64,000 bases of DNA from an uncultured Peptococcaceae bacterium (GCA_965149945.1 CBCTTQ010000001.1:126860-190859), one strand, 5' to 3'. Positions 4,841-63,740 are shown, counted from the first letter of the stretch. Notes: generated by a model from the sequence alone, not told the origin. Numbers and translations are program-made.

Positions 4841-5194
4841 GCCTGAAAGTTTTTATGACTGTTTTGTTTCCGATTTCAAGCGCTGCAGCGTCTGAAACTT
4901 GTTTCAACAGGTCGATGCGTCGATATTCATCGGAAACCTTTGTTCCGCTCGGCTTCGCTTTTTTTGAAGGCGGCGACAGGGCGTTTCGCCCGGAAAATCG
5001 AAAAGGCGGCGTTTCGGGCGCGAAAAGTTTTGTTTCGAGGCGGGTTGTTTTTTTAATAGATTGAGATAACTTGCGCGATACGACGAAGAAGTTTTTTCAA
5101 AGACATTTTCGGTATCGAATTCTTCGCGGAAAGATCAGAAAGAACATGCGCGGAAAACAGGGAAATTTTTCTTGTAATCGAGGTATGGGATTTG

Positions 5195-6463
5195 TTAACG
5201 GATTTTTTCGGCGGAAATGGGCGCTTCTTTTTTCAGCCAGTGATAGGAGTGAAGGTGCATTTCCTCGCCTTGCTGGTGAAAGGTGAAGGCGTCGCTGGTG
5301 CCGGAGTCGCTGATAAATCCCATTGGTTTTTCTTCTACTGTTTCATAGTGATTTTCGCGGATGAAATGATCTCGAAAAGCGGGGTAGTTGAAGTTTTGTT
5401 CCCATGTTTCCGGATAGTCTAACATCGCTTGTTTCATGGATTGACTGCCCGCCTTGAAATAAAAATAAGTCCCTAGGATATCGGTACCGGGATGGAAGTA
5501 GGGATCCAGGGTGTCCGTCAAATAGTGGTGATTGAAGAAATTGTACTCGTTACTGGAAAAATAGTCGATGAAAATATCCACACAGTGTCTTTTGAGGGGC
5601 AGGGCAAAGGTGGCGTCGCAGATATAGAGAATATCCAGGTTTAGATTGAGCCGGTCAATGCGTTCTTTGTACATTTTCACAATCTCGAAATATTTGTCCG
5701 CTAAAATGTATTGGCTGGCGGGATCCATCTGGGAGATGTGTCGATAAGTGAAAGCATAGGCGTTCATATGGTCCTCAAACAGCACCTTGCCGGAAGTCTG
5801 CATCCGTTCCAGCTGTCCCAGCATCCAATTGTAAGATTTTTGCAGAGTAGAAACAAAGGTGGCGGGGATGTTTTTCATGAAACTGCGTCCCAGGTCGGGA
5901 TAATCGTAGACGCTGATGCGACCGCCTTTGGTGCAGAGGATTCCTTCCCGAATTTTGGCGGTGTAGCCGCATTCGCAGAGAAATTCCCCTGAGAGAACAT
6001 ATTGATTTTCGATGTAGGCATCTTTCAAATTCAGCCGCTTTTGGCAGTGGGGACAATAGATTTTGTCCAACATCGCCAGAGGCACCCCTGTTTTCAAAGG
6101 ATGGCTTTCGATGGTATTTTTGATGGCATCGATTTCATTTTGCACACCGGCGATGGCTTCATCCAGCGCGCCGCGTTCTTGCAGCAGCCGCTCTTTTTGT
6201 TCCAAAAAGAAGCGCAGGTAATCTTCAATATCACCGCGGTCGTTTAAATTGCTGACCCGAATCAGAGAAAGGATATTATGGATGTCGCTTAGGGAAAAGC
6301 GCAGCTCTTTTAATTTCAGGATCAGCTCCAGGTCTTTCAGATCTTCCTCGCTGAACAGATATTGTTTGTTTTTGTTTTTCGGCACCAACAGTCCGCAGTG
6401 AACGTAGTAGCGGACAGAGTTGACGGGGATATGAACTTTTTGGGCGATTTCGCCGATTCTCAT
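5195..6463 (-). CDS. MerR-family transcriptional regulator fused to a Cys4 zinc ribbon and a ~250-aa C-terminal domain of unknown function
   Basis: The N-terminus MRIGEIAQKVHIPVNSVRYYVHCGLL is a MerR-type HTH. It is followed by a heptad-rich linker, a CPHCQKR...CECG zinc ribbon and a long aromatic-rich domain. An RBS GGAGGTG lies upstream of ATG 6463. The ORF-track N-terminal extension to 6535 has no RBS. Confidence 0.7.
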   Translation of the reverse strand: MRIGEIAQKVHIPVNSVRYYVHCGLLVPKNKNKQYLFSEEDLKDLELILKLKELRFSLSDIHNILSLIRVSNLNDRGDIEDYLRFFLEQKERLLQERGALDEAIAGVQNEIDAIKNTIESHPLKTGVPLAMLDKIYCPHCQKRLNLKDAYIENQYVLSGEFLCECGYTAKIREGILCTKGGRISVYDYPDLGRSFMKNIPATFVSTLQKSYNWMLGQLERMQTSGKVLFEDHMNAYAFTYRHISQMDPASQYILADKYFEIVKMYKERIDRLNLNLDILYICDATFALPLKRHCVDIFIDYFSSNEYNFFNHHYLTDTLDPYFHPGTDILGTYFYFKAGSQSMKQAMLDYPETWEQNFNYPAFRDHFIRENHYETVEEKPMGFISDSGTSDAFTFHQQGEEMHLHSYHWLKKEAPISAEKIR

Positions 6464-6852
6464 GGGCGCACCTCCGGTCTGCCTCGAACAGGGAAGCGGA
6501 AATTTATCATAGAAGATAACCATATCATAACACATTTTCGGAAAAAGAGTAAGGTTTTTCGAAAAATCTAGACTTCAGTTGATGTTTTTCGGGAGGGTTT
6601 CTCAATGATATGGAAAAAATAACAGCTTTACCTCCCCTTTTTGTTTCTGTTAGTAAAGAGATGGGCAAATTTTTCCAAACGTTACCTTGGAAAAGATTAT
6701 TCAAAAAACCTTGTGTAAGGATGAGATTTTACAAAAAAAATGAAAATTTCAGACAATTCGCAATAGGGGGAAGATTCTTCCGCTTTTTTTCTTTTTCGAA
6801 AGAGATTGTTTCTCTTTTGCGAATTTTCGGAAAAATGCGGCAAAAAAAGCCG

Positions 6853-6883
6853 TTGACATCGCCTCGAGACGAGGGGGTATGAT
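6853..6883 (+). promoter_or_regulatory. sigma-A type promoter (TTGACA-19-TATGAT) for the amidohydrolase gene, with a ~140-nt structured leader
   Basis: TTGACA lies at 6853 and TATGAT at 6878. A GC-rich leader (6890-7028) has hairpin potential and an RBS AAAGGAGG before ATG 7029. Confidence 0.45.
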
Positions 6884-7028
6884 AAACATATTGTAAAAGG
6901 GGTCAGGTTTGTTCGGCGCTCCTTTCGCCGAAACGGCTGCCCCTTTGCCGTTTTTAAGGGCGTGCGCCCCGAGGAAGGGAAAATGAACGCGAAAAAGGAA
7001 GGTTTTTTTCAGAAAAGGAGGCTGTGAG

Positions 7029-8672
7029 ATGAACAGCATTTATGCGGACAAAGTATTGTTGAGCAAGAACATTTTTACCGCGGACAGCAAAGAGCCGATT
7101 TCCGGCGGTGTGGCGGTTTCCGGTTACTACATCATTGCCGTCGGCAGCAGAGAAGAAATGGAACAATATATTGGAGAAAACACGGAAGTTTACGATTTTG
7201 GGGATCAGCTGCTGCTGCCCGGTTTTTGTGACGCCCATGTACATTTGATGATGGGTTGCATGGCGACTGCTTATCCGGATTTGGGACAGAGCAAAGACGC
7301 CGAAGACTGCGGCAGGATTCTGCGGGAACATTATGACAGCGATCCCGATTTCTATACCGAAGGCGAATGGGTATTGGGCTTCAATTGGTACCACACCCGC
7401 TGGGCGGATAAACGATTGCCCACTAAAGAAGTGCTGGATCGTTACTTCCCCGATCGCCCGGTCTTTTTGATGAATGCCGATTGCCACGGCGCTTGGGTGA
7501 ACTCCAAAGCGCTGGAAATTTGCGGTGTCAATAAAGATACGCCGGAAGTCCCCTATGGCTACATTCATCGGGACGCCCACGGTGAACCCACCGGTTATCT
7601 GGAAGAAATGGCCACCAAACTTTGCATTGAAAAAGCCTATGATCTGCCTGACGCCAAAGAAAGAATGCTGCTGAGAAAAGTCAATGCTTTCTTCAGTCAT
7701 TACGGCATCACTTCCGTGGGGGATATGCAGTACATTTTGGGTGCCAATGTGGGAAAAGTTTCTGTTTATCGGGAAATGGCGGATCAGGACGCGTTGGATT
7801 TCCGTATCAATTTCGCCAACGGTCTCTTTGATGATTTGAAAACCATTCTGGCGCTGCGCAGCCAGTTCAGCAACAAAGAAGATTTGGTGTATTATAACGG
7901 TTTGAAGGAATTTGTGGACGGCATCATCTCCACTCATACGTCTATTATGCTGGAACCGTACACCGATCTGCCCGATGCTCCTACCTATTATGAATTGATG
8001 GATCTGGCGGAAGCGGAACGCCGTATTGTGTTCTACCAGGGTTTGGGCATCAATGTTCAGCTGCACGCCACCGGTGACGGCGCTGTGCGCGAAGCCTTGA
8101 ATATGTATGAAAAAGCGGTGAGAACCAACGGTAAAACCCGCGCTCGTCTTTCTGTGGAACATTTGGACCTGACGAATCCCGCCGACTATTCCAGACTGGG
8201 AGAATTGGGCATCATCGCTTCGGTACAGCCGCCCCATATTACCTTGTCCGATTCTTTGGAAACCAATGATTATCCTCCGGTGATCGGGCCGGAACGGAGC
8301 AAACAGCTGTGGTCTTATAAATCTTTCGCGGATCATGGCGCGGTGCTGGCTTTCGGTACGGACTATCCCGTGGTTTACGACAGTCCGATGATTTCTCTGC
8401 ATCGCGCCGTTACGCGCAAATTCCCCGACGGCAAGCCGGAAGACGGCTGGAATCCCGAACAGCGTCTCTCCATTGAAGATTCTCTTATCGCCTATACGTT
8501 GGGCGGCGCCAAAAAATTCGGTAAAGAAGAGGTAGTGGGTTCCATCCGTGTGGGCAAATTGGCTGATCTGGTGGTTGTGGATAAAAACCTGCTGCAAATT
8601 GATCCTGATGAAATCCTCGATGCCAAAGTGGTGTTTACCATGGTGGATGGTCGTGTTGTTTACCGGGGCTGA
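7029..8672 (+). CDS. amidohydrolase family (Amidohydro_3 / YtcJ-like metal-dependent hydrolase)
   Basis: A GFCDAHVHLMMG metal-binding HxH motif sits near the N-terminus. Later His and Asp residues are positioned as in the amidohydrolase-3 fold, and the protein is 547 aa. Confidence 0.8.
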   Translation: MNSIYADKVLLSKNIFTADSKEPISGGVAVSGYYIIAVGSREEMEQYIGENTEVYDFGDQLLLPGFCDAHVHLMMGCMATAYPDLGQSKDAEDCGRILREHYDSDPDFYTEGEWVLGFNWYHTRWADKRLPTKEVLDRYFPDRPVFLMNADCHGAWVNSKALEICGVNKDTPEVPYGYIHRDAHGEPTGYLEEMATKLCIEKAYDLPDAKERMLLRKVNAFFSHYGITSVGDMQYILGANVGKVSVYREMADQDALDFRINFANGLFDDLKTILALRSQFSNKEDLVYYNGLKEFVDGIISTHTSIMLEPYTDLPDAPTYYELMDLAEAERRIVFYQGLGINVQLHATGDGAVREALNMYEKAVRTNGKTRARLSVEHLDLTNPADYSRLGELGIIASVQPPHITLSDSLETNDYPPVIGPERSKQLWSYKSFADHGAVLAFGTDYPVVYDSPMISLHRAVTRKFPDGKPEDGWNPEQRLSIEDSLIAYTLGGAKKFGKEEVVGSIRVGKLADLVVVDKNLLQIDPDEILDAKVVFTMVDGRVVYRG

Positions 8673-19438: not shown

Positions 19439-20335
19439 TCATGCGGAAGGAGAGTCAAGAGTTTTTGTGAAAATTTTGGAACTATTTTCATCCTTTTGGA
19501 ATGTGACCGGTACCTGCAGGCGGAGAAACATCCTGCGGGGGTCGTTATCAAACACATTAAAGCCTGTTACAACCTCGCAAATATAATCCCCCGCTATTTG
19601 ATAGTTCATATTTTCGCAATGATCCCGCAGCAGCCGCGCGCAGCGTATTTCATCATCATAATTATCTAAGTAGATACAGGCGTACATGCCGCTGTCGATT
19701 ACCTGCAGAGCGGAAAGATCTCCCTGATCGCGGTCGCTGGTAAAAATGAAAATCTGATCCGCCACAAAGCGGTCTTCCAGAAAATCTTTTTGCAGAATGG
19801 AAGTCCCGATGTTGTAGGAATGGATTTGCTGAAATCCTTTTTCTTCCAGTTTTGCCCGCAGTTGGCGCAGGCTTTGCTCGTAGCTGTGGATATCGTCCTG
19901 ATAAAAATTGTAAGAGCAGGGAATTCCCCAAGAAAAACGTCGATCGATGTATTCTAAAGAAAGAGTGCCTGTAGCGGGAGATTTACGGTATCGTTCAATC
20001 GACATGATGGACCGTTCCACCGCGTCATGCTGGGCTTTGAGCTGGCGCATTTGCAGGTGGATTTGCTCGTTTTTTTGTGAGAGAAGCTCTTCAATGAGGG
20101 AAATATCTTCCTTTTGCAGCACCTGAGAGATTTGGGACAGGCTCATGCCCAGTTCTTTCATATAGGCGATCATGTCTAATCGGGCGTTTTGATTGATATC
20201 GTAGTAGCGATAACCTGTCTTGGGATCGACATAGCGTGGTTTAAGCAGCCCCTTTTCATCATAAAGGCGCAAAGTAGGGATGGAAATCCGATTCATCGCG
20301 GCCATTTTACCGATAGGAATTAAATTATCTTTCAT
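19439..20335 (-). CDS. MerR-family transcriptional regulator with C-terminal GyrI-like/effector-binding domain (BmrR-like)
   Basis: The N-terminus IGKMAAMNRISIPTLRLYDEKGLL is a MerR HTH, followed by a coiled coil and a ~150-aa effector domain. An RBS GGAGGG lies upstream. Confidence 0.75.
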   Translation of the reverse strand: MKDNLIPIGKMAAMNRISIPTLRLYDEKGLLKPRYVDPKTGYRYYDINQNARLDMIAYMKELGMSLSQISQVLQKEDISLIEELLSQKNEQIHLQMRQLKAQHDAVERSIMSIERYRKSPATGTLSLEYIDRRFSWGIPCSYNFYQDDIHSYEQSLRQLRAKLEEKGFQQIHSYNIGTSILQKDFLEDRFVADQIFIFTSDRDQGDLSALQVIDSGMYACIYLDNYDDEIRCARLLRDHCENMNYQIAGDYICEVVTGFNVFDNDPRRMFLRLQVPVTFQKDENSSKIFTKTLDSPSA

Positions 20336-20956
20336 GAAAATCCCTCCAAAACTCTAATCTTAATTAAGAGTTTACGACTGTTTTGGATGAATTGCAAGGG
20401 CCTTTGTTCATTTTGATGAAAAAAGATTCGCTTTACTTGAGAAATAACGGATTAGGTAAGAGTGCCGCGGGAAGATTTGTCGCTCGTCTGTCTCATAGCG
20501 GCGGGGAAGACGTACTTTTCGTAATAATTTTACAGAACTGTTTGTTTCTATACTTCTATAATAAAGAGAGAAAGAGATGTACAGCGGAAATTTTCGGAAA
20601 GAGAAAACGGTATCGATCGGGAGCGGCGTTATCGGTTTCGTTATAAAGAAAGGAAGCGGCGACGATTGGCTCTCTGATTGCCAAGTCTTTAAGGCGGCGT
20701 TTTTGATTGCGGTTCGGCAGCCCCTTGGCAAAGGAGGTACTTTTTTGAATCCCGAAGGGATTCTTTGCCGCGGGTAAGGGATGGGTTGGCGGTTTTAGTG
20801 AGGCGTTTTCGAAAAGAAGAAAAGAAGAGAAATGTCACTGATAAGGAAAATGCCTGCTATCGGCATTGGTTGTGGGGAATGAAGGAAAATACGAAAAGAA
20901 AATTGTTAGAATTTTCAGAGTATACAGAATACATGCGATTTTAGCGCTTTAAAGTG

Positions 20957-20985
20957 TTGACATTGGCGAAAAAATCGTTTATAAT
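20957..20985 (+). promoter_or_regulatory. sigma-A promoter (TTGACA-17-TATAAT) with a TTTAAAGT upstream element
   Basis: Perfect consensus hexamers at 20957 and 20980. It drives the homopurine, Lys-rich unit. Confidence 0.65.
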
Positions 20986-21197
20986 GAACTCACAAAACAA
21001 AAACAAATCAAACAAAAAAGGAAACAATAGTCGGGCAGGTGAAAACATCAAAATTCTTCGCGAAAGCGAATGACGGCAAAGATGAAAAATCTGCGAAAGC
21101 AAAATTGCTCCACGGGGAGCAATTCCACAGAACCCTGAACCGAAAGAGAATCCGCTGAAGAAGTCAAAAGACTAAAACAATTCCAAAAGGGATCAAA

Positions 21198-21836
21198 TTG
21201 AAAAAAGTCTTTTCGATGAATTCCAAAAAAGTTTTCAAAAGAAAGAAAATATCGAAGAGTACTCCTTCGGACCAAGCTTCAAAAGAGCGTAAGCCGAAAG
21301 AGATGGCTTCAAAAAAATCTTTCAAAAAAATTCTTCCGAAAGATTTCTCAAAAGAAGTAATTCAAAAAAAGTTTCCGAAGAAACCCTTTCCTGAAAATTA
21401 CTTTGAAAATGTTCGAAAAGGAAAAAGAAATTACGAAAGAAAAACCTCAAAAGAAGAGGAATTTTCAAAAGTAATCTTCCAAACCGGAAAAACTCAAAAA
21501 GCGCCTCAAAAGATGAGGAAAGGCAGACTTGAGAAAGGTAAAAAACATGTTGAAAACGCGCAAAGAGCGCGGAAACAACATCTTTCAAACCTAAAAAATT
21601 TCAAAAGAACAAAAATCAAAGAAAAACACGAAGTATCCGTAAGAAACTGCGATTTCCAAAATTCAAAAAGAGGAAATTCCCAAAAAGAGAAAAACTTAGC
21701 AATAAGAAAATCTTCAAAGAGCAATGCTCAAACAGAAGAAAACTTAGCAATAAGAAAAACTCAAAAGAGGAAATTCCCGAAAAGAATCGAAAAAGCAGAA
21801 AACAAAAAGGGAAACCAAACAAAAACAGGAAAATAA
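21198..21836 (+). CDS. lysine-rich, highly basic low-complexity protein (hypothetical; possible nucleic-acid-binding IDP), TTG start
   Basis: A 212-codon stop-free frame lies inside a tract of roughly 50% A. By chance a stop would occur about once every 15 codons. All T residues fall in TTC or TTT (Phe) or Ser codons. A weak RBS AAAGGGA precedes the TTG. Confidence 0.45.
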   Translation: MKKVFSMNSKKVFKRKKISKSTPSDQASKERKPKEMASKKSFKKILPKDFSKEVIQKKFPKKPFPENYFENVRKGKRNYERKTSKEEEFSKVIFQTGKTQKAPQKMRKGRLEKGKKHVENAQRARKQHLSNLKNFKRTKIKEKHEVSVRNCDFQNSKRGNSQKEKNLAIRKSSKSNAQTEENLAIRKTQKRKFPKRIEKAENKKGNQTKTGK

Positions 21837-21860
21837 CAGGTAATTTCTCAAGAAACAAAT

Positions 21861-22046
21861 TTGAAAAAACTTCTTTCAAGCGAATCAAAAGAGAACGAAA
21901 ACAATTGGAAAATCATCAAAGAAAAAAGTAAAAGCGAAAACCCAGAAAAGAGAATTGCTGAACCGAAGCGGAAACAGGAGGTATATTTTCAAAAGAAAGA
22001 ACAATCAAAAGTTCCTTCAAAAAAAAAGAAACAAAAAAGAAAATAA
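21861..22046 (+). CDS. second Lys-rich ORF in the same frame as 21198..21836, separated by a single TAA (possible readthrough or nonsense-split gene)
   Basis: Same frame ((21861-21198) is divisible by 3). It begins again with TTGAAAAAA and has the same composition. Confidence 0.3.
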   Translation: MKKLLSSESKENENNWKIIKEKSKSENPEKRIAEPKRKQEVYFQKKEQSKVPSKKKKQKRK

Positions 22047-53894: not shown

Positions 53895-54662
53895 TCAGGC
53901 GGTTATAAAGCCGCCGTTTACAGGCAAAATCTGTCCGGTGATGAAATCGGCGTCCGCCCCCGCCAAAAAGAACACCGCCGCCGCTACTTCTTCCGGCTGA
54001 CCGATACGCCCCAGCGGAGTTTCCGCTGCCAGCGCCGCCAGCTCCCGAGGGGAAAGATGGGCGTTAATGTCGGTGGCGATAACGCCGGGGGAGACGGCAT
54101 TAACAGTGATTCCGGAAGGAGCGACTTCCAGCGCCAATCCTTTGGTAAAGGCGTCCAGGGCGCCTTTGCTGGCGGCATAAGCTACTTCGCAGGAGGCTCC
54201 CGCCTGCCCCCACATGGAGGAGATGTTGATGATTTTGCCCCGTTTTCGCTGAATCATCTGGGGTAACACTAAGCGGCAAGCGGTAAAAACCGCTTTTACG
54301 TTGACAGCGAATAACTGGTCCCATTCTGTCTCGCTCATATCGGTGAGCAACCCATTCCAGCCGATGCCGGCATTGTTGATTAAAATGTCAATTTTGCCGA
54401 ATCGGTGGGTTGCTTGTTGTATCAATTGTTCAATGTCCGCCGTTTGGCGCAGATCCGCTCGACATAGTAACAGATGTTCTGCCGGGACCCCTTCCTCTTT
54501 CAGCTGCCGAACCAATGCTTCTGCTTGGGGGCGGCTTTGATGGTAGTGGAGAACCACCCGATCGCCGTGGGCGGCAAATCGCGCGGCGACGGCGCGGCCG
54601 ATTCCGCGACCGGCTCCTGTTACCAGCACAGTGCGAGATTCCGAAGCGGAGTGTTGTTCCAT
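53895..54662 (-). CDS. SDR-family oxidoreductase (FabG-like 3-oxoacyl-ACP reductase family)
   Basis: TGAGRGIG is a Rossmann motif and YAASK is the catalytic YxxxK. The protein is 255 aa. Confidence 0.85.
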   Translation of the reverse strand: MEQHSASESRTVLVTGAGRGIGRAVAARFAAHGDRVVLHYHQSRPQAEALVRQLKEEGVPAEHLLLCRADLRQTADIEQLIQQATHRFGKIDILINNAGIGWNGLLTDMSETEWDQLFAVNVKAVFTACRLVLPQMIQRKRGKIINISSMWGQAGASCEVAYAASKGALDAFTKGLALEVAPSGITVNAVSPGVIATDINAHLSPRELAALAAETPLGRIGQPEEVAAAVFFLAGADADFITGQILPVNGGFITA

Positions 54663-54749
54663 GATTGTTTCCTTCTTTCCCCAAAGATTTTAATCTGTAA
54701 CAGAGCGCCGAAGAAACCGTGCAAAACGACGGTGTCACGAAAAGAGGCG

Positions 54750-55522
54750 TTACTTTCTTCGTTTTTTGCCGACGGTGGGATAGGAGGTGATGGGGTGCAG
54801 ACGGTCAAACAGCAGGCAGAGAATCCCTGCCGCGATGCCCGCGACACTGATTACCATGGCCATTTTCAAGTCTCCCAGCATCAAACTGTCGGTGCGGAAC
54901 CATTCGATCCAAAACCGTCCCAGGGAATAGCCGATGAAATAAAGGGCCATAATATCCCCATGTTTTCGATTTTTCCATTTGTTCCACAGCACCATCAGCA
55001 GGATGAATACAGCTAAATCCCAGAGACTTTCGTACAAGAAAGTGGGGTGGCGGTAGGCGCCGTCGATGTAAATGGCCCAGGGTAGATCGGTAACGCTGCC
55101 GTAGGCTTCTTGGTTGAAAAAATTACCCCAACGGCCGATGGCTTGTGCCAGCACGACACCCGGCAAAATGATGTCTGCCATAACGCGAAAAGGCATTTTT
55201 TTGACGAGACAGTAAAGGAACATGGCCAGCATGCCGCCCAGTAAACCGCCGTGGATGGCGAGACCGCCGTGCCAGACGGCGATAATTTCCGACGGATTGG
55301 CGGAATAATAGCCCCAGTTGAAGATCACATAATACAAGCGGGCGCCGATCAGTCCGCAGGGTAAAATCAAAAGGATAATGTTCATCAGATGGTCGGTGTC
55401 CACACGGCTTTTCTTGCAGTTACGGACGGCGATGAGAATGGCGATGAGAATACCGCAAACAATCAACAGTCCGTACCAACGCACCGACAGACCGCCGATT
55501 TCAAACGCAACGGGGTTAATCA
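54750..55522 (-). CDS. lgt: prolipoprotein diacylglyceryl transferase (TTG start)
   Basis: The Lgt signature GRWGNFFNQEAYG is present, and the N-terminus (M)INPVAFEIGGLSVRWYG follows a strong RBS AAAGGAGGGG 6 nt before TTG 55522. The ORF-track extension to 55709 adds ~60 non-homologous residues with no RBS. Confidence 0.8.
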
Positions 55523-55648
55523 AAATAGTCCCCTCCTTTAAAAATTTTATTGATAACTTTTCTTGATAATAGTATAATAGAAACGGAGCCCTTCCCCGCG
55601 TGGCGGAAAGGGTCGTCCTTTTAAGTATATATTGCATTATATCATATT

Positions 55649-55688
55649 TGTGATGGAGGTACAATATTTGTGATGGAGGTACAATCAT
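55649..55688. repeat. perfect 2 x 20-bp tandem duplication (atttgtgatggaggtacaat) containing the Shine-Dalgarno of the DUF2156 gene
   Basis: Direct sequence observation. The duplication creates two 6-8 codon uORFs. Confidence 0.85.
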
Positions 55689-56607
55689 GTTTACATTGAA
55701 AGAGGTCATGCCGGAAGATAAAACATTGCTCCAAAGCTATTTGCGGCAAATCCCGCCGTATTTGACGGAGCATTCTTTTACGACCCTGCTGGCATGGCAG
55801 AAATCTTTTCAGTTTCTTTTCGGGCAGTGGGAAGATTTTTTGCTGATCCGTAATACCCACCGCGGTGTTACTTCCTTTTTCCCGCCTTTTCCCCGCGCGG
55901 GGCGAGCTTCGAAAGAATCGTATCGGGCCGCTTTGGAGGAAATTTTAGCGTATTGTCGCGAAGAAGGCCTGCCTTGTGTCCTTTCTGAGGTGGGAGAACG
56001 GGAACTTCCCCTGATCGAAGCGGCGATGCCGGGGGCGTTTGCTGTGCGCAAAGACCGCAACAACGCCAATTATATCTATCGGGTGGAAGATTTGATTCGC
56101 TTGGAGGGGAAAAAATATCACAGCAAGCGCAATCATCTGAACAGTTTCAAACGCAACTATCCCTTTTACGAATATCGAGCCTTGACGCCGGATTTGATTC
56201 CCGCCTGTCGGGAAAGCATGGAACGCTGGGAATGGGATAATCCGGCCACAGACCGGAAAACCGTCAAAGAGGAAGCCGAGGCGATGGAAGTGCTGTTTGG
56301 GCGCATGGAAGAGTTGGGTTTGAAGGGCGCCTGTATTTTATTGGGCGACAAAGTAGAAGCTTTCACTATCGGGGAAGCTATGAGCGAGGAAATGGTGTCC
56401 ATCATTATCGAAAAAGCCAATACCTCCTGCAAAGGCAGCTATGCCGCCATCAATCAGATGTTTTTAGCGGCGGAGTGGCGGGAGTATCCTTATGTTAATC
56501 GGGCGGAGGATATGGGGCTGGCCAATCTGCGCCGCGCCAAAATGGATTATCAACCTTGCTGGCTGGCGATGAAATATATCTTGGAATATCGTAACGGAAC
56601 GCACTGA
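55687..56607 (+). CDS. DUF2156 domain protein (MprF C-terminal lysyl-transferase-like fold)
   Basis: A ~300-aa protein with KKYHSKRNHLNSFKRN, a basic motif characteristic of the DUF2156/LPG-synthase C-terminal family. An RBS GGAGG lies 6 nt upstream. Confidence 0.65.
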   Translation: MFTLKEVMPEDKTLLQSYLRQIPPYLTEHSFTTLLAWQKSFQFLFGQWEDFLLIRNTHRGVTSFFPPFPRAGRASKESYRAALEEILAYCREEGLPCVLSEVGERELPLIEAAMPGAFAVRKDRNNANYIYRVEDLIRLEGKKYHSKRNHLNSFKRNYPFYEYRALTPDLIPACRESMERWEWDNPATDRKTVKEEAEAMEVLFGRMEELGLKGACILLGDKVEAFTIGEAMSEEMVSIIIEKANTSCKGSYAAINQMFLAAEWREYPYVNRAEDMGLANLRRAKMDYQPCWLAMKYILEYRNGTH

Positions 56608-56984
56608 TTTGCTTGTTGGGGTGAGACGGATGGCCTTGTTTAAACTTAGTTTATAAAGACCCCTTACAATAAAAACTGTTCGGGAGATTTTCGCGGAACT
56701 GATATAAAATAGGACGGCCTCCTGTCCTTCCGAGAAAATCAAAGATAGAAAAGATAAAACAAAAAACAGAGATCTGAAAAAAGAAAAGTTGGCACATGAA
56801 TGCGCTTGAAAACAATCAAACGATGATTTGCGGGATATGTGATAGGTATAGCGGCCTGCTTACGGCAGAGACGATAGAGATAGATTTACAAGATAGCCGC
56901 GAATTCTCCCGGAGAATAAAGAAAATCCACCGGTCTTCGACCGGTGTGTTCCTATTATAAAAACAAAAAAAGCGAGGGAAAACA

Positions 56985-58721
56985 ATGAGCAAAGTGATTG
57001 GGATTGACCTGGGTACCAAAAATTCCTGTGTATCGGTGATGGAGGGGGGATCTCCTGTCATTATTCCTTCCGAAACAGGCAGCCGTACCACGCCTTCTGT
57101 GGTGGCCTTTACGACGACGGGAGAACGCCTGGTCGGAGAAGCCGCCAAACGGCAGGCGGTAACCAACGCCGACCGCACCATTTCTTCTATCAAAAGGGAA
57201 ATGGGCAGTGATTATCGGGTGCGGATTGACGGACACGCTTACTCGCCCCAGGAAATCTCAGCCATGATTTTGCAAAAGGTGAAAAAAGACGCCGAAGAAT
57301 ACCTGGGCGAAACGGTGACTGACGCGGTGATTACGGTGCCGGCATATTTCACGGACGCCCAGCGCCAAGCCACCAAAGACGCCGGCAAGATTGCCGGTTT
57401 GAATGTACAGCGCATTATCAACGAGCCGACGGCGGCGGCGCTGGCCTACGGCGTGGACAAAGAAGATTCCCAAAAAGTGATGGTCTATGACTTAGGCGGC
57501 GGTACCTTTGATGTGTCTATTTTGGATATCAACAGCGGTATTATCGAGGTGATGGCTACTGCCGGCAATAATCGCTTAGGAGGCGATGATTTTGACCAGG
57601 TGGTGATGGATTATTTGATCGCGGAATTTAAAAAGACCAATCATTGCGACATTACCAAAGATCTGACTGCTCTCTCTCGCCTGCGGGAAGCAGTGGAAAA
57701 AGCCAAAATCGAACTGTCCGGTATTAATGAAACCCACATCAGCCTGCCCTTTTTGATGCAGCATAAAGGAGCGCCGGTGCATATGGATATTGCTCTTACC
57801 AGGGCTAAATTTGACGCTTTGACCGCCCATTTGGTGGATGCCACCATGGGACCGGTGCGGCAAGCTATTACGGATGCGGGTATCGCGGTGAGTGATATTG
57901 CTAAGGTGCTGCTGGTGGGCGGGTCTACGCGGATTCCCGCCGTGCAGCAGGCAGTGCGGAAATTTGTGGGCAAAGAGCCTTTTAAAGGAATCAATCCCGA
58001 TGAATGCGTGGCTATGGGCGCGGCGCTGCAGGCGGGCGTTTTGCTGGGCGAAGTGAAGGGACTGGTATTGTTGGATGTGACGCCTCTTTCTTTGGGTATT
58101 GAGACCATGGGCGGGGTGTTTTCCAAAATCATTGACCGTAACTCCACCATTCCCATCAAAAAGAGCCAGATTTATACTACGGCCGCCAGTTTCCAGACGG
58201 CGGTGGAAGTCCATGTGTTGCAGGGCGAACGGGAAATGGCAAAATACAATAAATCTTTGGGGCGTTTTCGTCTCAAAGGCATTCGCCGCGCCATGCGGGG
58301 AGTGCCGCAGATTGAGGTAACTTTTGAGATCGACGCCAACGGCATTGTCCATGTGACCGCCAAAGATTTGGGTACCGGCAAACAGCAGGATATCACCATT
58401 ACCGCTTCTTCCAATCTTTCTCAGTGGGAGATTGACGACGCCATCAAATACGCGCAGATGTACGAGCAGGAAGACCGCAAAAAGAAAGAAGAGGCTACTG
58501 CCAAAAATGACGCTGAAGTGCAGGTTTATCGGGCGGCTTCTTTGAGTAAAAAATTGGAAAAAGGGGATAAAACGCTGGTAGCGGACGCTGTCAAACGAGT
58601 AAAAAAGAATATGCGCAATAAAGACAAAAGTCAATTGGTCAGCGCCACGCGCGATTTGAAAAATTTGCTGGACAGCTTGGAAGGTCGCTATGGTTTTGCC
58701 GATTCTCAAAACGAAAAATAG
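56985..58721 (+). CDS. Hsp70-family chaperone, short non-canonical paralog (578 aa, no C-terminal lid extension or EEVD-type tail)
   Basis: [24 protein letters not shown] and a complete NBD plus SBD-beta are present, with a truncated helical lid. An RBS GAGGGAAAA lies upstream. Confidence 0.85.
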
Positions 58722-58851
58722 AAAAACAGAGTGGGAGCAAAGGAGAAAATCAAAAAAAACGCAGTTCGGAACAGGGAAAACTCTTGTGTTCGGAGCGGCT
58801 TTCTGATACAATAAAAGGCGCGGTTCATCGGTGGCGAAAGGGGATAGGCGG

Positions 58852-59763
58852 ATGTTTGGTTATGTAATGGCGAACCAGAGCAGTTTGTCGGAAGAAGCCA
58901 AAGAGCGTTATCGTGCCGCCTATTGCGGACTTTGCCACACTTTGGGCAGAACGCACGGCTCCTTAAGCCGTCTGACTTTGAATTATGATTTGACTTTTTT
59001 GGCAATTTTTTTGGCGGCATTGGATGAAGAAGACGTTCGCTCTTTTTGGGGGAGGTGCGGTCTGCACCCGCTGAAAAAACGAAAATATCTCTCTTGTCCG
59101 GCGCTGGATTACGCGGCGGATATGAACATCGCTCTTTCGTATTATAATTTACTGGATAATTGGCGGGATGACCACAGTTATGTTTCCCGGGCGGAAGCCG
59201 CCCTTTTGCGGCGGGAATGTCGTCGGGTGGAAGAGGCTTATCCCCGCCAGTGCGGCGCCATTCAAGAGTCTTTGCGGCGATTAGCGGAAATGGAAAAAAA
59301 CAATGAGCTGAATCCCGATTTGCCGGCGTCTTGTTTCGGTCGTTTGATGGCGGAAATTTTTGTACGGCAAGAAGACGAACGGGCGCAGACGCTGCGGCGG
59401 TTCGGCTTTTTCCTCGGCAAATATATCTATCTGTTGGACGCGGTATTGGATTTAAAAAAAGACATTAAGCAGGAAAAATACAATCCGCTGATTGCGTATC
59501 CTTCCGACGGGTTTCGAGACAGTCTTTGCTTGTTGATGAATGATTGTACCTTGGCTTTTCAGGAGTTTCCCCATTTGCGGCAGGATGAACTGCTGCGCAA
59601 TATTTTGTATTCCGGGGTGTGGCTGCGTTTTGATTTACGTCAGGCACAGGAAGAACAAAAACAGCGGAAACGACAGGAAAAAGCCGAAAAGAAAACCGCG
59701 CGCCATCCAAAGACGCCGCGGAATACCAAGAACGAAAAGGAAAAAAGGGAAACGATTGAATGA
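58852..59763 (+). CDS. conserved hypothetical protein (~300 aa, CGLCH motif) between the Hsp70 gene and the J-domain gene
   Basis: The ORF is translationally coupled (ATGA) to the next gene. It has a Lys/Arg-rich C-terminal tail. Possibly the DUF5685 family. Confidence 0.6.
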
Positions 59764-60479
59764 TGCAGGATCCATATAAGGTTCTGGGGGTCTCCCCGGA
59801 TGCCACAGATGAGGAAATCACCAAGGCCTACCGCAAGTTAGTCAAAAAGTATCACCCGGACTTGAATCCGGATGACCCGGAAGGCGCCAATAAGAAGATG
59901 AGTGAAATCAATGTGGCTTATGAAGAAATCAAAAATATCAAAGCCGGAAAAAGCTCCTACGGTCAAACGGGACCCGGCGCCGGCGGCGCCTACAGCGGCA
60001 ACCCTTACAGCGGAAATCCCTATGACAATCCCTTTGGCGGCTTCGGCGGCTTCGGCGGTTACGGTAGTTCCGCGGGCGGATCGTCCGGCGGTTACAGCAG
60101 TTCTTACGGCGGCAGTCGTGACAGCCGCTTTGATTCTGTGCGCACGTATATTTCCGCGGGGCTCTACCAGGAAGCTTGGAATGTGCTGAACAGCATGACA
60201 GAGCACAATGCGGAGTGGTATTATTACAGCGCCTATGTTAATTATAATCTGGGCAATAAGGTCTCCGCTCTGAATCAGGCTCGGGTGGCAGTGCAAATGG
60301 AACCCAACAATTTTGAATATCGCCGTCTGCTGATGCAGATTCAAAATGAAGGAAACGGCTATCAAGCGCAGCAGGGCGCTGTCTGCATTCCCTGCGGCGG
60401 TAATTTGTGCTGGGGTTATCTTTTTGCGATGATGCTTTGCTCTTGCTGCTGTCCCGGCGGTTATGGCTTCTATCATTAA
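59760..60479 (+). CDS. J-domain protein with Gly/Phe/Tyr-rich linker, TPR-like segment and C-terminal cysteine string
   Basis: The J domain has HPD ([12 protein letters not shown]). A low-complexity G/Y/S region, a TPR-like helix pair and a C-terminus [31 protein letters not shown] follow. Confidence 0.8.
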
Positions 60480-60538
60480 CAAAAGAAACACCGAGCAAAA
60501 CTCGGATAAATAAACATCGCGGAAAGGGGTGTAGATCC

Positions 60539-60946
60539 ATGTATCGGCTGCGGGAAATGATGGTTCGCTTTATGGCGGGCAGGTACGGTACAGATAATCT
60601 GAACTGGCTGATTTTCTGGCTGTATCTGATCTTGTTTATCGTTTATCTGATTACACGGATGAGTATTTTCTATTACATTGGGTTTGTGATGGTGATTCTC
60701 TATTTTTTCCGCACCTTTTCCCGAAATATTTATCGCCGACAGTTGGAAAACCAGCGCTATCTGGACGCGACGAAAGGGATTCGGGTCTTTTGCCGCCGTC
60801 AGAAAAATCGCTGGCGGGATCGGCATACCCATGTGTATAAACGCTGTCCCGGTTGCAAAACTTTTTTGCGGTTGCCTAAACAAAAGGGCGCTCATATCGC
60901 TGTTTGTCCTAAATGCCATCGGGAATTTGAAGTGAAAATCCACTGA
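60539..60946 (+). CDS. small membrane protein with two TM helices and a C-terminal Cys4 zinc ribbon
   Basis: CPGCKTF...CPKCHREF. An RBS AAAGGGG lies upstream of ATG 60539. It is the last gene of the Hsp70 cluster. Confidence 0.55.
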   Translation: MYRLREMMVRFMAGRYGTDNLNWLIFWLYLILFIVYLITRMSIFYYIGFVMVILYFFRTFSRNIYRRQLENQRYLDATKGIRVFCRRQKNRWRDRHTHVYKRCPGCKTFLRLPKQKGAHIAVCPKCHREFEVKIH

Positions 60947-61070
60947 GTACGCGTTGTCAGGCCCTCTGTTTACGAGCCTGACGGAAGGCGGAACAACCAT
61001 TTTTCCTGTCGGAAACGATTACAGGAATTCCTTCAATGTCGCCGCTCATGGTCTCGCGGTATGAATTTTT

Positions 61071-61104
61071 TCGCGCTCGTTGAATCCGAGCGCGATTTTT
61101 TTTT
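61071..61104 (+). terminator. Rho-independent terminator ending the Hsp70-cluster transcript
   Basis: tcgcgctcg-ttgaatc-cgagcgcga is followed by T9. Confidence 0.8.
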
Positions 61105-61631: not shown

Positions 61632-63230
61632 TCAAACTTCTTTGCTTCGTTCTTTGTTGATATCTTGTAAAACCTCGTTGATCGCCTGGAGGCTGTCGAT
61701 ATCGTGATGGCGCACCAAATCGGAAAGCTGCTGGTTGATATCGAAATACAACTGAGAGAGCACCACTTCGGGTACTTTTGGTTTGATCGTGCCCGCAACT
61801 TCCACTGTGGTTTTCTTGGCTTCCAGATTGAATACCTCGCCCCAAGTGGGAATGATGGTGTGGTAGCCATAGGTTTCTTCCGTCAATTTTTTGAAATCTG
61901 CCCGCGCGTCGTCTTCTCCATGTACCAGAAAGACGGCTTTGGGTTTTTGTTTGGCGGTGCCCAGCCATTGGATCAGCTCGTCGCGGTCGGCATGGGCGGA
62001 ATAGCCTTCCATAAAGAGGATTTTGGCTTTGACATTGATTTCTTCCCCGTGGATTTTAACCACCTTTTCTCCGTCGATCAGACGGCGTCCCAGAGTTCCT
62101 ACCGCCTGGTAGCCTGCGAAAATAACCGTACATTCCGGTCGCCAGAGGTTGTGTTTCAGGTGGTGTTTGATACGACCCGCTTCCGCCATACCGCTGGCAG
62201 AAATGACAATGGCGCCGCTTTTAATCTGGTTGATGGCGATGGATTGTTCCAGGGTGGTGGAGAAAACGATGTTGTCTGTTTTCAGCGGACTTCTGCCGTA
62301 TTTTTTCATCAGCGCCCGTGTGTTTTGGTCAAAACATTCCGGATGGCGGCTGAAGATTTCTGTTGCCTGCACAGCCAGAGGACTGTCCACGTAGATTTTG
62401 GTTTTCGGCAGTAGTCCGTCATCAATCAAGCCGTTGATTTCCATGATCATATCTTGGCAGCGATCTACTGCGAAGGCGGGGATGATGACATTACCGCCCG
62501 CTTGGAAAGTGCTGGTGATGATATGCGCCAACTGACGGCGGCGGGCTTCGGTGTCGATGTATCGTTCATTGTGCAGCCGATTACCGTAGGTGGTTTCCAT
62601 GACAATGTAATCGGTGTCGTTAATGGGGGTGGGATCTTTGACAATGAAATGGTCATAACGCCCTAAATCTCCCGAGAAAATGATTTTTTCCGCCTGACCT
62701 TCTTCGTTACGGTATTTCACTGTGGCCATGGCGGAACCCAAAATATGTCCCGCGTCCTGAAAGGAAATTTCCACGTCGGGGGTGGGACGAAACGGCTCCC
62801 AGTAGTCTTTGGCAATAATATGCTCACAGGTTTTTTCTGCGTCTTCCACAGTGTAGATGGGCTCCAGCAGCGGAATGCCGGCGCGGGCGTTTTTCCGATT
62901 TTTCCGCTCGATTTCTCCTTCTTGTACATGAGCGGAATCGGGCAGCATAACGGTACACAGATCATAGGTGCCGTTGGTGGTATAGATGTTACCCTGAAAG
63001 CCTTCCTTATACAATTTGGGCAGTAGGCCGCTGTGGTCGATATGCGCGTGGGTCAGCAGTACAAAGTCAATTTTTTCCGGCGGAAACATGAAGGAAACAT
63101 AGTTCCGCTCTTTTAATTCTTTGTTTCCCTGGTATAATCCGCAGTCTACCAGGAATTTTGTATTTTTATGTTCTACCAGGAAACAGGAGCCCGTCACGGT
63201 TCCCGTTGCGCCCAGGAAGGAAATTTTCAT
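61632..63230 (-). CDS. MBL-fold beta-CASP RNA-metabolising hydrolase (CPSF/Ysh1-like) with ~100-aa C-terminal extension
   Basis: LLTHAHIDHSG is the metallo-beta-lactamase HxHxDH motif, and a beta-CASP region follows. An RBS GAGGTG lies 6 nt before ATG 63230. The ORF-track start at 63593 adds 121 residues with no RBS. Confidence 0.75.
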   Translation of the reverse strand: MKISFLGATGTVTGSCFLVEHKNTKFLVDCGLYQGNKELKERNYVSFMFPPEKIDFVLLTHAHIDHSGLLPKLYKEGFQGNIYTTNGTYDLCTVMLPDSAHVQEGEIERKNRKNARAGIPLLEPIYTVEDAEKTCEHIIAKDYWEPFRPTPDVEISFQDAGHILGSAMATVKYRNEEGQAEKIIFSGDLGRYDHFIVKDPTPINDTDYIVMETTYGNRLHNERYIDTEARRRQLAHIITSTFQAGGNVIIPAFAVDRCQDMIMEINGLIDDGLLPKTKIYVDSPLAVQATEIFSRHPECFDQNTRALMKKYGRSPLKTDNIVFSTTLEQSIAINQIKSGAIVISASGMAEAGRIKHHLKHNLWRPECTVIFAGYQAVGTLGRRLIDGEKVVKIHGEEINVKAKILFMEGYSAHADRDELIQWLGTAKQKPKAVFLVHGEDDARADFKKLTEETYGYHTIIPTWGEVFNLEAKKTTVEVAGTIKPKVPEVVLSQLYFDINQQLSDLVRHHDIDSLQAINEVLQDINKERSKEV

Positions 63231-63740
63231 CACAAACACCTCGATTTCCATATTTCCGCTTATTCCGTTTTTCCTTTGTAATCCTTCGGCGGCTGTCGGC
63301 GCGGTCATATCCGCGAAGCAGAGCGCCCGATGGCGGCCGAGAGGGAATCTATCCTTATTATAGTATGGGAGAAAAAGAAAAGCAAATGTTTTTTCCGCCA
63401 GAAAAAAAGTCTGCTTAAAGAAGATTCGAATATAGGCGTACTTTCGGCGGCAGGTTCTTTGCCGGGAGATTATGCCTGTTGTGATGATGGGAAGCGGAGA
63501 AAACCGTTTCTGAATATTTTGGGGAAATCCTGCCGCCTTGTTTTCTGATCGGAAGTCTCTTCTTTGAAAAAGGGAAGAGCGCTTTTTTAACAAACTTTCT
63601 GAGGAAAGGGTTCCCTGAAAATCGCTCCGAGCCTGTTACCTAAATGCGGTCGATAGTCCCGGCGGAAATATTCTTCCTGTGGGATTAGCGGGTTATCCGC
63701 GATCTCACAGAAGAAGATCTTCGATTCGCGGGGAGAGAAC

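Follow-up and report, generated by a model that had tools for sequence, protein, structure and literature searches.

Specialised pairs of an Hsp70 and a J-protein are rare and poorly understood in bacteria. The locus described here raises the question of whether an Hsp70 gene and the three genes that follow it form such a dedicated system, or whether the Hsp70 is simply the housekeeping DnaK of its genome with unrelated neighbours. The locus lies in a stretch of 64,000 nucleotides (nt) from an uncultured Peptococcaceae bacterium (GCA_965149945.1, CBCTTQ010000001.1:126860-190859); this whole 64-kb stretch is called the window below, and positions are counted from its first letter unless another locus is named. 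An earlier examination of the same DNA, made without database searches and referred to here as the sequence-only reading, had proposed a four-gene, membrane-associated Hsp70/J-protein module. Our results agree that the region is probably a dedicated Hsp70/J-protein module, likely located at the membrane and distinct from the housekeeping dnaK operon, and they redraw the boundaries of the unit, whose constant part is a pair formed by a DUF5685 protein and the J-protein. Four co-directional open reading frames (ORFs) and a terminator were found where the sequence-only reading had placed them:

56985-58721, + strand: DnaK-type Hsp70 paralog, 578 amino acids (aa) (Pfam, NCBIfam, alignment with E. 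coli DnaK)
58852-59763, + strand: DUF5685 protein, 303 aa (Pfam PF18937, invariant columns, AlphaFold2 model)
59760-60479, + strand: class C J-domain protein, 239 aa (Pfam, homolog alignments, single-sequence structure model)
60539-60946, + strand: two-transmembrane zinc-ribbon membrane protein, 135 aa (conservation across 67 homologs)
61071-61104, + strand: intrinsic terminator at the end of the operon (9-bp stem at 61071-61095 with 7 G-C pairs, then the TTTTTTTTTG T run)

To define the unit, loci were collected with a profile built from DUF5685 relatives, which gave 80 loci in species-representative genomes, 56 of them with enough flanking sequence for gene order to be determined. A J-protein of the same architecture is encoded directly 3' of DUF5685 in all 80 loci. 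The zinc-ribbon gene adjoins this pair in 51 of the 56 loci (91%), either downstream of the J gene or upstream of DUF5685, and an Hsp70 gene adjoins it in 25 of 56 (45%), an association that spans phyla and takes two alternative orders. The orders observed in the 56 loci were DUF5685-J-zinc ribbon (17), Hsp70-DUF5685-J-zinc ribbon (15), zinc ribbon-DUF5685-J (10), zinc ribbon-DUF5685-J-Hsp70 (8), DUF5685-J (4) and others (2). Since J adjacency reaches 100%, against 91% for the zinc-ribbon gene and 45% for Hsp70, DUF5685 and the J-protein are regarded as the invariant core; the zinc-ribbon protein is a near-constant third member and Hsp70 a frequent, optional fourth. Thus, co-conservation holds for the J and zinc-ribbon genes and only partly for Hsp70, so the unit differs from the four genes originally proposed.

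The core pair is also closely coupled. The ATGA stop/start overlap between the second and third genes, noted in the sequence-only reading, is present at 59760-59763, and overlaps of 4 nt between DUF5685 and J were found in the window and in loci L083, L085, L088 and L090. Two DUF5685 members with 34% identity, located on Oscillospiraceae megaplasmids, retain the pairing:

L090, positions 6586-8508: remote DUF5685-J pair of Pusillibacter faecalis (NZ_AP023421.1)
L091, positions ~5001-6570: remote DUF5685-J pair of Subdoligranulum variabile (OY725846.1)

The J-proteins of these remote pairs have the G-rich linker, the TPR-like domain and a Cys-rich tail with a final Cys. The hosts of the module include Spirochaetes and Faecalibacterium-type genomes, and most of them are anaerobes by their record titles. 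A sporulation-specific role was set aside, as the module occurs in Spirochaetes and Faecalibacterium-type genomes and no sporulation promoter was found.

The J-protein consists of an N-terminal J domain (residues 1-61, PF00226, E-value 3e-20) in which H32, P33 and D34 are invariant in 16 homologs, a linker rich in G, S, Y and F (residues 62-120), a TPR-like helical domain (residues 121-198) and a Cys-rich tail. No match to the DnaJ_C or CXXCXGXG zinc-finger domains was found in this protein, which places it in class C. The HPD motif, the linker and the Cys tail were described correctly by the sequence-only reading; its TPR-like helix pair is replaced by five helices within residues 123-198, predicted with a local confidence score (pLDDT) above 90 in a single-sequence model that is good only for residues 121-198. 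The Pfam TPR_14 match in this region is below threshold.

The tail of the window protein carries seven Cys in a hydrophobic context at residues 209-231 (nt 60384-60452). In 78 complete homologs, the last 30 residues contain a median of six Cys, versus a median of 0 in the remaining protein. The terminal residue is Cys in 46 of the 78 homologs, 70 have at least one Cys among their final five residues, and a CC or CxC motif occurs within the final six residues in 49, the tail consensus being N-[LI]-C-x-G-x-C-x-A-x-x-C-C-x-x-C-G-R-P-C. For the best-scoring 17 residues of the tail, the median Kyte-Doolittle hydropathy is 1.54; as about two charged residues are usually among them, a classical transmembrane helix is doubtful.

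Rab GTPases carry C-terminal CC/CXC prenylation motifs, and lipidated J-proteins are known in eukaryotes, such as farnesylated Ydj1/DNAJA and palmitoylated DNAJC5, the latter acting in a complex with Hsc70 and SGT, a TPR protein. The tail studied here resembles the Rab motifs and the lipidated cysteine string of DNAJC5; like DNAJC5 and Ydj1, the bacterial protein combines a J domain with a Cys cluster, which bears lipid and anchors the protein to membranes in eukaryotes, and a TPR element is involved. In contrast to them, its Cys string is at the extreme C-terminus, no homology outside the J domain is established, and lipidation is hypothetical. The comparison with cysteine-string proteins made in the sequence-only reading is therefore apt only as an analogy, as no similarity outside the J domain was detected.

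The fourth protein has the two hydrophobic segments and the Cys4 ribbon that had been ascribed to it. Conserved in 67 homologs are an N-terminal RFMxGRYGxDxL motif, the two hydrophobic segments and an FRxFSRN...EN motif, and the C-terminal zinc ribbon is formed by C103, C106, C123 and C126 (CPGC...CPKC). It belongs to no Pfam or NCBIfam family. When the proteins were compared with the PADLOC defence models, Hsp70, DUF5685 and the J-protein gave no match, and the zinc-ribbon protein gave one at chance level (E-value 0.009).

The middle protein of about 300 aa, in which a CGLCH motif had been noticed, is a member of DUF5685 (PF18937, E-value 5e-91, 305 bits against a cut-off of 26.7), with residues 1-260 aligned to profile positions 1-270 of 272. 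Its true start is the family-conserved MFGY at 58852, not the GTG at 58831. The PF18937 family contains 5973 clusters at 50% identity, and most of the best 150 listed are standalone proteins with lengths of ~270-290 aa. PF18937 is matched by each of the 18 relatives that were aligned, and the following residues are invariant in this 18-sequence alignment: M1, F2, G3, Y24, C25, G26, L27, C28, C69, H72, P73, A89, D90, M91, D102, W104, D106, P155, D156, G189, Y193, D196, A197, D200, D204, Y210, N211, P212 and an NILYSGxW block. Three elements of the protein are of particular importance for what follows:

59155-59172: first Asp motif of DUF5685, D102-x3-D106-D107
59437-59463: second Asp motif of DUF5685, D196/D200/D204, spaced i, i+4, i+8
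Residues C25-x2-C28 and C69-x2-H72: Cys/His element of DUF5685

The first motif reads DDWxDD in most members and DNWRDD in the window. The Asp residues and C25, C28 and C69 are retained in the 34%-identical members, and H72 is replaced by Asn in the Subdoligranulum protein.

An AlphaFold2 model of DUF5685 (pLDDT 87.6, predicted template modelling score 0.82) is all-alpha with one beta-hairpin. When it was searched against the PDB with Foldseek, all of the top 50 matches were trans-prenyl-diphosphate synthases or prenyltransferases, with probabilities up to 1.00, template modelling (TM) scores of 0.45-0.58 and root mean square deviations of ~6 Å or more. The best match was MoeN5 (E-value 1.9e-3), and the matches also included the geranylgeranyl diphosphate synthase CrtE, farnesyl diphosphate synthases and the Sulfolobus hexaprenyl diphosphate synthase (TM score up to 0.58). 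In the model, the D102 motif ends helix 83-107, D196/D200/D204 end helix 178-199 and run into 201-206, and three helices lie between them. The two motifs thus appear to be placed like the first and second (Asp-rich or NSE/DTE) motifs of the isoprenoid-synthase fold. DUF5685 is therefore predicted to have an isoprenoid-synthase-like fold with a prenyl-diphosphate-type active site, and the odds lean towards its binding a Mg-diphosphate substrate. This assignment rests on fold and motifs, because no sequence-profile method links DUF5685 to known enzymes.

We also examined how the module is controlled. An OmpR-family response regulator and a histidine kinase are encoded divergently from the cluster in ~11 species of Clostridia and Spirochaetes, including Acetivibrio cellulolyticus (L085), A. 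mesophilus (L017), Sedimentibacter (L015) and the spirochaetes L026 and L083. The linked systems are orthologous, with identities of 74-91% for the regulator and 61-87% for the kinase. The kinase has two hydrophobic segments joined by ~10 residues, followed by HAMP, HisKA and HATPase domains, which suggests the intramembrane-sensing type. No NCBIfam equivalog was reached by either protein. In the linked loci, the first operon gene is preceded by GTTtAtAtT-ca-GTTtATAtT, 7 nt and TATAAT, and the same repeat is found, inverted, beside the regulator gene. In 17 loci, among them the window (56638-56670), the operon is preceded by a tandem GTTTATATT box with a -10 element; in the window, the following elements were recognized:

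56638-56657, + strand: tandem direct repeat GTTTAAACT-TA-GTTTATAAA with an 11-bp period, predicted box of an OmpR-family regulator
56665-56670, + strand: -10 hexamer TACAAT, 7 nt past the second repeat, a spacing fixed in 17/17 aligned loci
56678-56984, + strand: probable 5' leader of ~305 nt with a hairpin at 56928-56946

The box pattern, derived from 10 two-component-linked loci, matches the window once, immediately 5' of the Hsp70 gene; no match would be expected by chance. The alignment of the 17 loci is gapless; G11, T12, T13, A15, A17, G22, T23 and A26 of the box and T38, A39, A41 and T43 of the -10 element are invariant. It covers five loci that have no adjoining two-component system, as in the window. 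In seven loci (L003, L006, L008, L009, L010, L023 and L053), the first gene behind the box promoter encodes a fused ABC_tran-FtsX transporter of ~450 aa, longer in L023 and L053, and sits directly upstream of Hsp70 or DUF5685. Loci of the Oscillospiraceae type have an ABC_membrane/ABC_tran exporter pair before zinc ribbon-DUF5685-J instead.

This arrangement shares several features with the Bce/Lia-type envelope-stress modules of Firmicutes, namely an OmpR-family regulator, a kinase whose two transmembrane segments are joined by a minimal external loop, an FtsX-type ABC transporter at several loci and a tandem-repeat box that overlaps the -35 position. It differs from them in that the transporter is a fused ATPase-FtsX protein of ~450 aa rather than BceAB, in that kinase and regulator belong to no NCBIfam equivalog, and in that the effectors are chaperone components, which have not been described for such modules.

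The extent of the leader follows from the position of the promoter. Within it, the blocks TCGGGAGATT, GAGAAAATCAA and GCGGnATnTGnGnTAGGTATAG are conserved only in the two nearest relatives, L092 and L093, and a 7-bp helix between UUCUCCC and the Shine-Dalgarno region is possible. Evidence for structure in the leader is weak (minimum free energy z-score -2.06), and the leader matched no Rfam family. A sigma-54 promoter candidate at 56789-56805 (TTGGCAC-N4-ATGC) was rejected on reading, its GG-to-GC spacing being one base short.

Taken together, these results suggest that the cluster is the effector operon of a dedicated two-component regulon that responds to membrane or envelope stress. In this model, the OmpR-type regulator, once phosphorylated by the intramembrane-sensing kinase, would bind the tandem GTTTATATT box, which accompanies the two-component genes, and turn the operon on. 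DUF5685, as a soluble protein, and the J-protein would form a complex, as suggested by their 100% adjacency and the 4-nt overlaps of their genes. The Cys-rich tail, aided by the two-transmembrane zinc-ribbon protein, would set the J-protein at the cytoplasmic face of the membrane. There, its J domain would recruit and activate an Hsp70, either the co-encoded paralog if present or the housekeeping DnaK, and the Hsp70 may act on membrane-proximal clients or on DUF5685 itself. We put the probability of this model, which excludes any S-prenylation, at about 0.55.

A further step can be considered, in which DUF5685 would S-prenylate the C-terminal cysteines of the J-protein from a prenyl diphosphate and thereby yield a lipid-anchored co-chaperone. 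It would be the most economical account of a prenyl-diphosphate-type protein that is inseparable from a cysteine-string J-protein; even so, we consider it unlikely that DUF5685 modifies the tail in this way. The full proposal, a bacterial system for cytoplasmic protein lipidation in which DUF5685 S-prenylates the CC/CxC string of its co-translated J-protein under a membrane-stress two-component switch, is more speculative still. If true, it would give prokaryotes an equivalent of farnesylated Ydj1/DNAJA, geranylgeranylated Rab tails and the palmitoylated cysteine-string protein; we know of no DHHC or CaaX transferases in bacteria.

The nearest precedents for such chemistry may be ComQ/ComX and MoeN5. 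ComQ attaches a prenyl group to a Trp of the pheromone ComX, and its gene adjoins those for this substrate and for a two-component system. ComQ and MoeN5, the latter being the best structural match to DUF5685, act on non-isoprenoid acceptors; their all-alpha trans-prenyl-diphosphate-synthase fold with Asp-rich motifs is predicted for DUF5685 as well. There is no detectable sequence similarity to either, however, and DUF5685 is shorter between its motifs (~94 residues) and has an extra CxxC/CxxH element and a beta-hairpin. In addition, the proposed acceptor is a Cys on a folded co-chaperone, as opposed to the Trp of a secreted peptide in the case of ComQ.

Several observations weigh against the interpretation given so far. 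With regard to the fold, a Pfam scan of 18 DUF5685 members at E-values up to 10 gave one SQS_PSY match in one member (E-value 0.22), a profile search of the PDB gave no relevant match, and an hhalign comparison with E. coli IspA returned a probability of 0.1. The Foldseek E-values are marginal (1.9e-3 at best), the placement of the Asp residues was read from secondary structure, and in the window (DNWRDD) and in Pusillibacter (DGVAD) the first motif is strictly D-x3-D and not DDxxD. As for lipidation, eight residues follow the last Cys in the tail of the window protein, and to our knowledge there is no precedent for a bacterial enzyme of protein S-prenylation. With regard to the module itself, more than half of the 56 loci have no adjoining Hsp70, and the membrane location, the DUF5685-J complex and the binding of the regulator to its box are predictions from sequence. 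Finally, Pusillibacter has a two-transmembrane RseC-family protein (CxxxCxxCxxC) in the slot of the zinc-ribbon protein, so the membrane Cys4 partner may be interchangeable, and this replacement, taken with the Cys residues conserved in DUF5685, could indicate a metal or redox function. No RseC-like partner was found in the loci that lack the zinc-ribbon gene.

Among the alternatives, the one that survives best, which we nevertheless regard as unlikely, is that DUF5685 makes or binds a terpenoid or polyprenyl lipid and serves, for instance, the homeostasis of lipid carriers when the cell envelope is under stress. The J-protein would then be a membrane-tethered adaptor that brings Hsp70 to regulate, assemble or recycle DUF5685, and its tail an unmodified anchor. 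The fold and Asp motifs of DUF5685 would suit such a role, as would a regulon with an intramembrane-sensing kinase and an ABC-FtsX transporter, which is reminiscent of Bce-type envelope-stress modules. A gene for undecaprenyl-diphosphatase (BacA) lies downstream of the cluster in L032 and L088/L089, but this neighbour is limited to a single lineage and no other isoprenoid gene recurs beside the cluster. The hydropathy of the tail (1.54 for the best stretch) would favour an unmodified anchor, yet its charged residues make it a poor transmembrane helix. This explanation also leaves unaccounted for a Cys-string anchor that ends in Cys across branches only 34% identical.

A metal, Fe-S or redox machine appears unlikely as well. 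According to this explanation, the Cys string, the CxxC...CxxH element of DUF5685 and the membrane Cys4 protein would bind or pass on metal or Fe-S clusters, or serve as a thiol switch, the Asp motifs would hold metal ions, and transfer or remodelling would be powered by Hsp70 and the J-protein, in the way that HscA/HscB act on IscU. C25, C28 and C69 of DUF5685 are indeed invariant and kept in the 34%-identical members, but H72 is Asn in Subdoligranulum, and eight invariant Asp and the lack of a conserved set of His/Glu are easier to reconcile with Mg2+-diphosphate than with Fe-S chemistry. The J tail holds 4-9 Cys; their position amid hydrophobic residues at the extreme C-terminus would, however, be unusual for a cluster-binding site. 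The mostly anaerobic hosts would be in line with a metal function, as would the membrane partner, a Cys4 zinc ribbon in most loci and the RseC-family protein (CxxxCxxCxxC and two transmembrane segments) in Pusillibacter, whereas no isc, suf or nif gene recurs beside the cluster. HscA-HscB-IscU does resemble the module in that a dedicated Hsp70 and a class C J-protein serve one co-encoded partner. The scores against the corresponding models are far under their cut-offs, though (549 bits against 709 for HscA, TIGR01991; 18 against 47 for HscB, TIGR00714), and the partner here has an isoprenoid-synthase-like fold according to its model, with no isc genes near the window cluster.

We then return to the Hsp70 itself. 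It matches Pfam HSP70 (PF00012; E-value 3.8e-223, 742 bits, up to model position 593 of 599), exceeds the cut-off of the NCBIfam DnaK model NF001413 (845 bits against 648) and is borderline for TIGR02350 (823.3 bits against 822.55). The nucleotide-binding domain and the beta subdomain of the substrate-binding domain are complete, as the sequence-only reading had stated, and the J-binding segment and the LLDVTP linker are intact. The lid-less or truncated form proposed earlier must be abandoned. Residue 560 corresponds to residue 593 of E. coli DnaK (2KHO), 18 further residues follow, and the helical lid is essentially complete since the alignments extend to DnaK residue 593 and Pfam position 593/599. 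Compared with the 621-aa canonical clostridial DnaK, what is missing is a disordered C-terminal tail of ~40 residues rich in Gly, Gln and Asp, and four residues after lid helix B.

Although a missing lid was the wrong reason, the conclusion that this Hsp70 is not the housekeeping DnaK stands on its group signature and gene context. The signature concerns two loops. All 31 full-length cluster Hsp70s have Phe (F403, the equivalent of N432) where three canonical DnaKs used for comparison have the Asn of an A-D-N-Q loop, and the preceding Asp, equivalent to D431, is retained in none of the 31; the GI-P-PAPRG loop is replaced by GI[RQK][RK]A, with basic residues. The affected positions (D431, N432, N463 and P464 in E. 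coli numbering) lie in what we take to be the loops of the substrate arch and the lid contact. Because the changes fall on these loops, substrate handling by the cluster Hsp70s is probably altered. Chimeric metagenome ORFs that topped the bit-score ranks were de-duplicated by hand. Such internally duplicated canonical-DnaK ORFs in metagenome assemblies are P0121 (952 aa), P0138 (692 aa), P0241 (1017 aa) and L087 3172-6030.

As to gene context, the canonical copy used for comparison (L087) encodes the 621-aa DnaK, 65% identical to the window Hsp70, in the order hrcA-grpE-(pspC)-dnaK-dnaJ. No grpE, hrcA or class A dnaJ adjoins the window Hsp70 or any of the 39 cluster-linked Hsp70 genes. The housekeeping dnaK operon is absent from the window, as claimed in the sequence-only reading: neither a second Hsp70 nor a CIRCE element, with up to three mismatches allowed, was found in the 64 kb. 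The window protein thus departs from a housekeeping DnaK in operon location, in the A-D-N-Q and GI-P-PAPRG loops and in the acidic/Gly-rich tail. The cluster copies of Paenibacillaceae and spirochaetes share 65-67% identity with Geobacillus DnaK, as do the clostridial copies, and the window Hsp70 is 67% identical to it. As this identity is equal across host phyla, the cluster Hsp70s would represent a separate group spread by transfer. Sediminispirochaeta smaragdinae DSM 11293 (GCA_000143985) carries the same Hsp70-DUF5685-J-zinc-ribbon cluster (L083) and is recorded as having two DnaKs ("DnaK numbers = 2") in Data set S1 and again in a table of DnaK pairs (PMC11019930). The genome of the window presumably also contains a second DnaK. 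Therefore, we conclude that the cluster Hsp70 is a specialised DnaK paralog forming its own group. In public records these proteins go under the name "molecular chaperone DnaK", which hides the paralog from genome surveys.

The explanation that this Hsp70 is the housekeeping DnaK of its genome and that its neighbours are unrelated and there by chance is very improbable and largely excluded: its score over the NCBI DnaK equivalog cut-off, its public name, its 67% identity to Geobacillus DnaK and the lack of a second Hsp70 within the window speak for it, but they are outweighed by an adjacency repeated in 25 of 56 loci in two gene orders and across phyla, by the absence of hrcA, grpE, class A dnaJ and CIRCE, each of them present with the canonical copy of L087, by F403 in 31/31 cluster copies and 0/3 canonical ones, by Paenibacillaceae and spirochaete copies that are no closer to Geobacillus DnaK than clostridial ones, and by the two DnaKs of S. 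smaragdinae.

Specialised or shared Hsp70s encoded together with inner-membrane class C J-proteins are known from E. coli, namely HscC (Hsc62) with DjlC/DjlB and DnaK with DjlA. The module studied here is similar in pairing an Hsp70 with a class C J-protein; the membrane tether is known in E. coli and is predicted here. In contrast to HscC, the cluster Hsp70 is a near paralog of DnaK and reaches 81 bits with NCBIfam PRK11678 (cut-off 331), and HscC/DjlC have no DUF5685 or zinc-ribbon partner. The window J-protein differs from DjlA in having a TPR-like domain and a cysteine string but no transmembrane helix, and it reaches 41.6 bits against 162 for the DjlA model. A dedicated Hsp70/J-protein module is thus of a known kind, while its DUF5685 partner is unprecedented and its regulon is defined.

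In the literature, DUF5685 appears in one paper only, as an entry in a domain list, and neither the C. difficile dnaK mutant paper nor a large J-protein survey mentions the module. Heat shock raises the expression of CBO0189 of C. botulinum ATCC 3502, a "DnaJ-related" gene located apart from the dnaK operon, 8.2-fold (PMC3806222); CBO0189 could not be tied to the J family of the module. DUF5685 comprises about 6000 clusters at 50% identity, found in Clostridia, Paenibacillaceae, Spirochaetes and many gut taxa. For this anonymous family, the present analysis offers testable hypotheses: a prenyl-diphosphate-type site, an obligatory cysteine-string J partner, and a promoter/operator with a cognate two-component system of the intramembrane-sensing type. 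If the lipidation proposal is true, this would be the first bacterial enzyme system that S-prenylates a cytoplasmic protein; otherwise, the module would still represent a new membrane-stress-responsive branch of chaperones with an altered DnaK substrate cleft.

Some further observations were made in the surroundings of the cluster. Genes neighbouring it in the window (53895-56607 and 61632-63593) encode a short-chain dehydrogenase/reductase, the prolipoprotein diacylglyceryl transferase Lgt, an LPG_synthase_C/DUF2156 protein and, in convergent orientation, a beta-CASP metallo-beta-lactamase RNase. The lgt gene was named by synteny with L092, in which the order of neighbours is the same, and in 10 loci the beta-CASP gene converges on the cluster. 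The BacA gene mentioned above is convergent and lies just past the zinc-ribbon gene (L032, 9195-10118; L088/L089, 9852-10676), with two copies 96% identical. Elsewhere in the window, positions 20001-22000 have a G+C content of 0.38 and an AT skew of +0.26, compared with a G+C content of ~0.49 in the rest.

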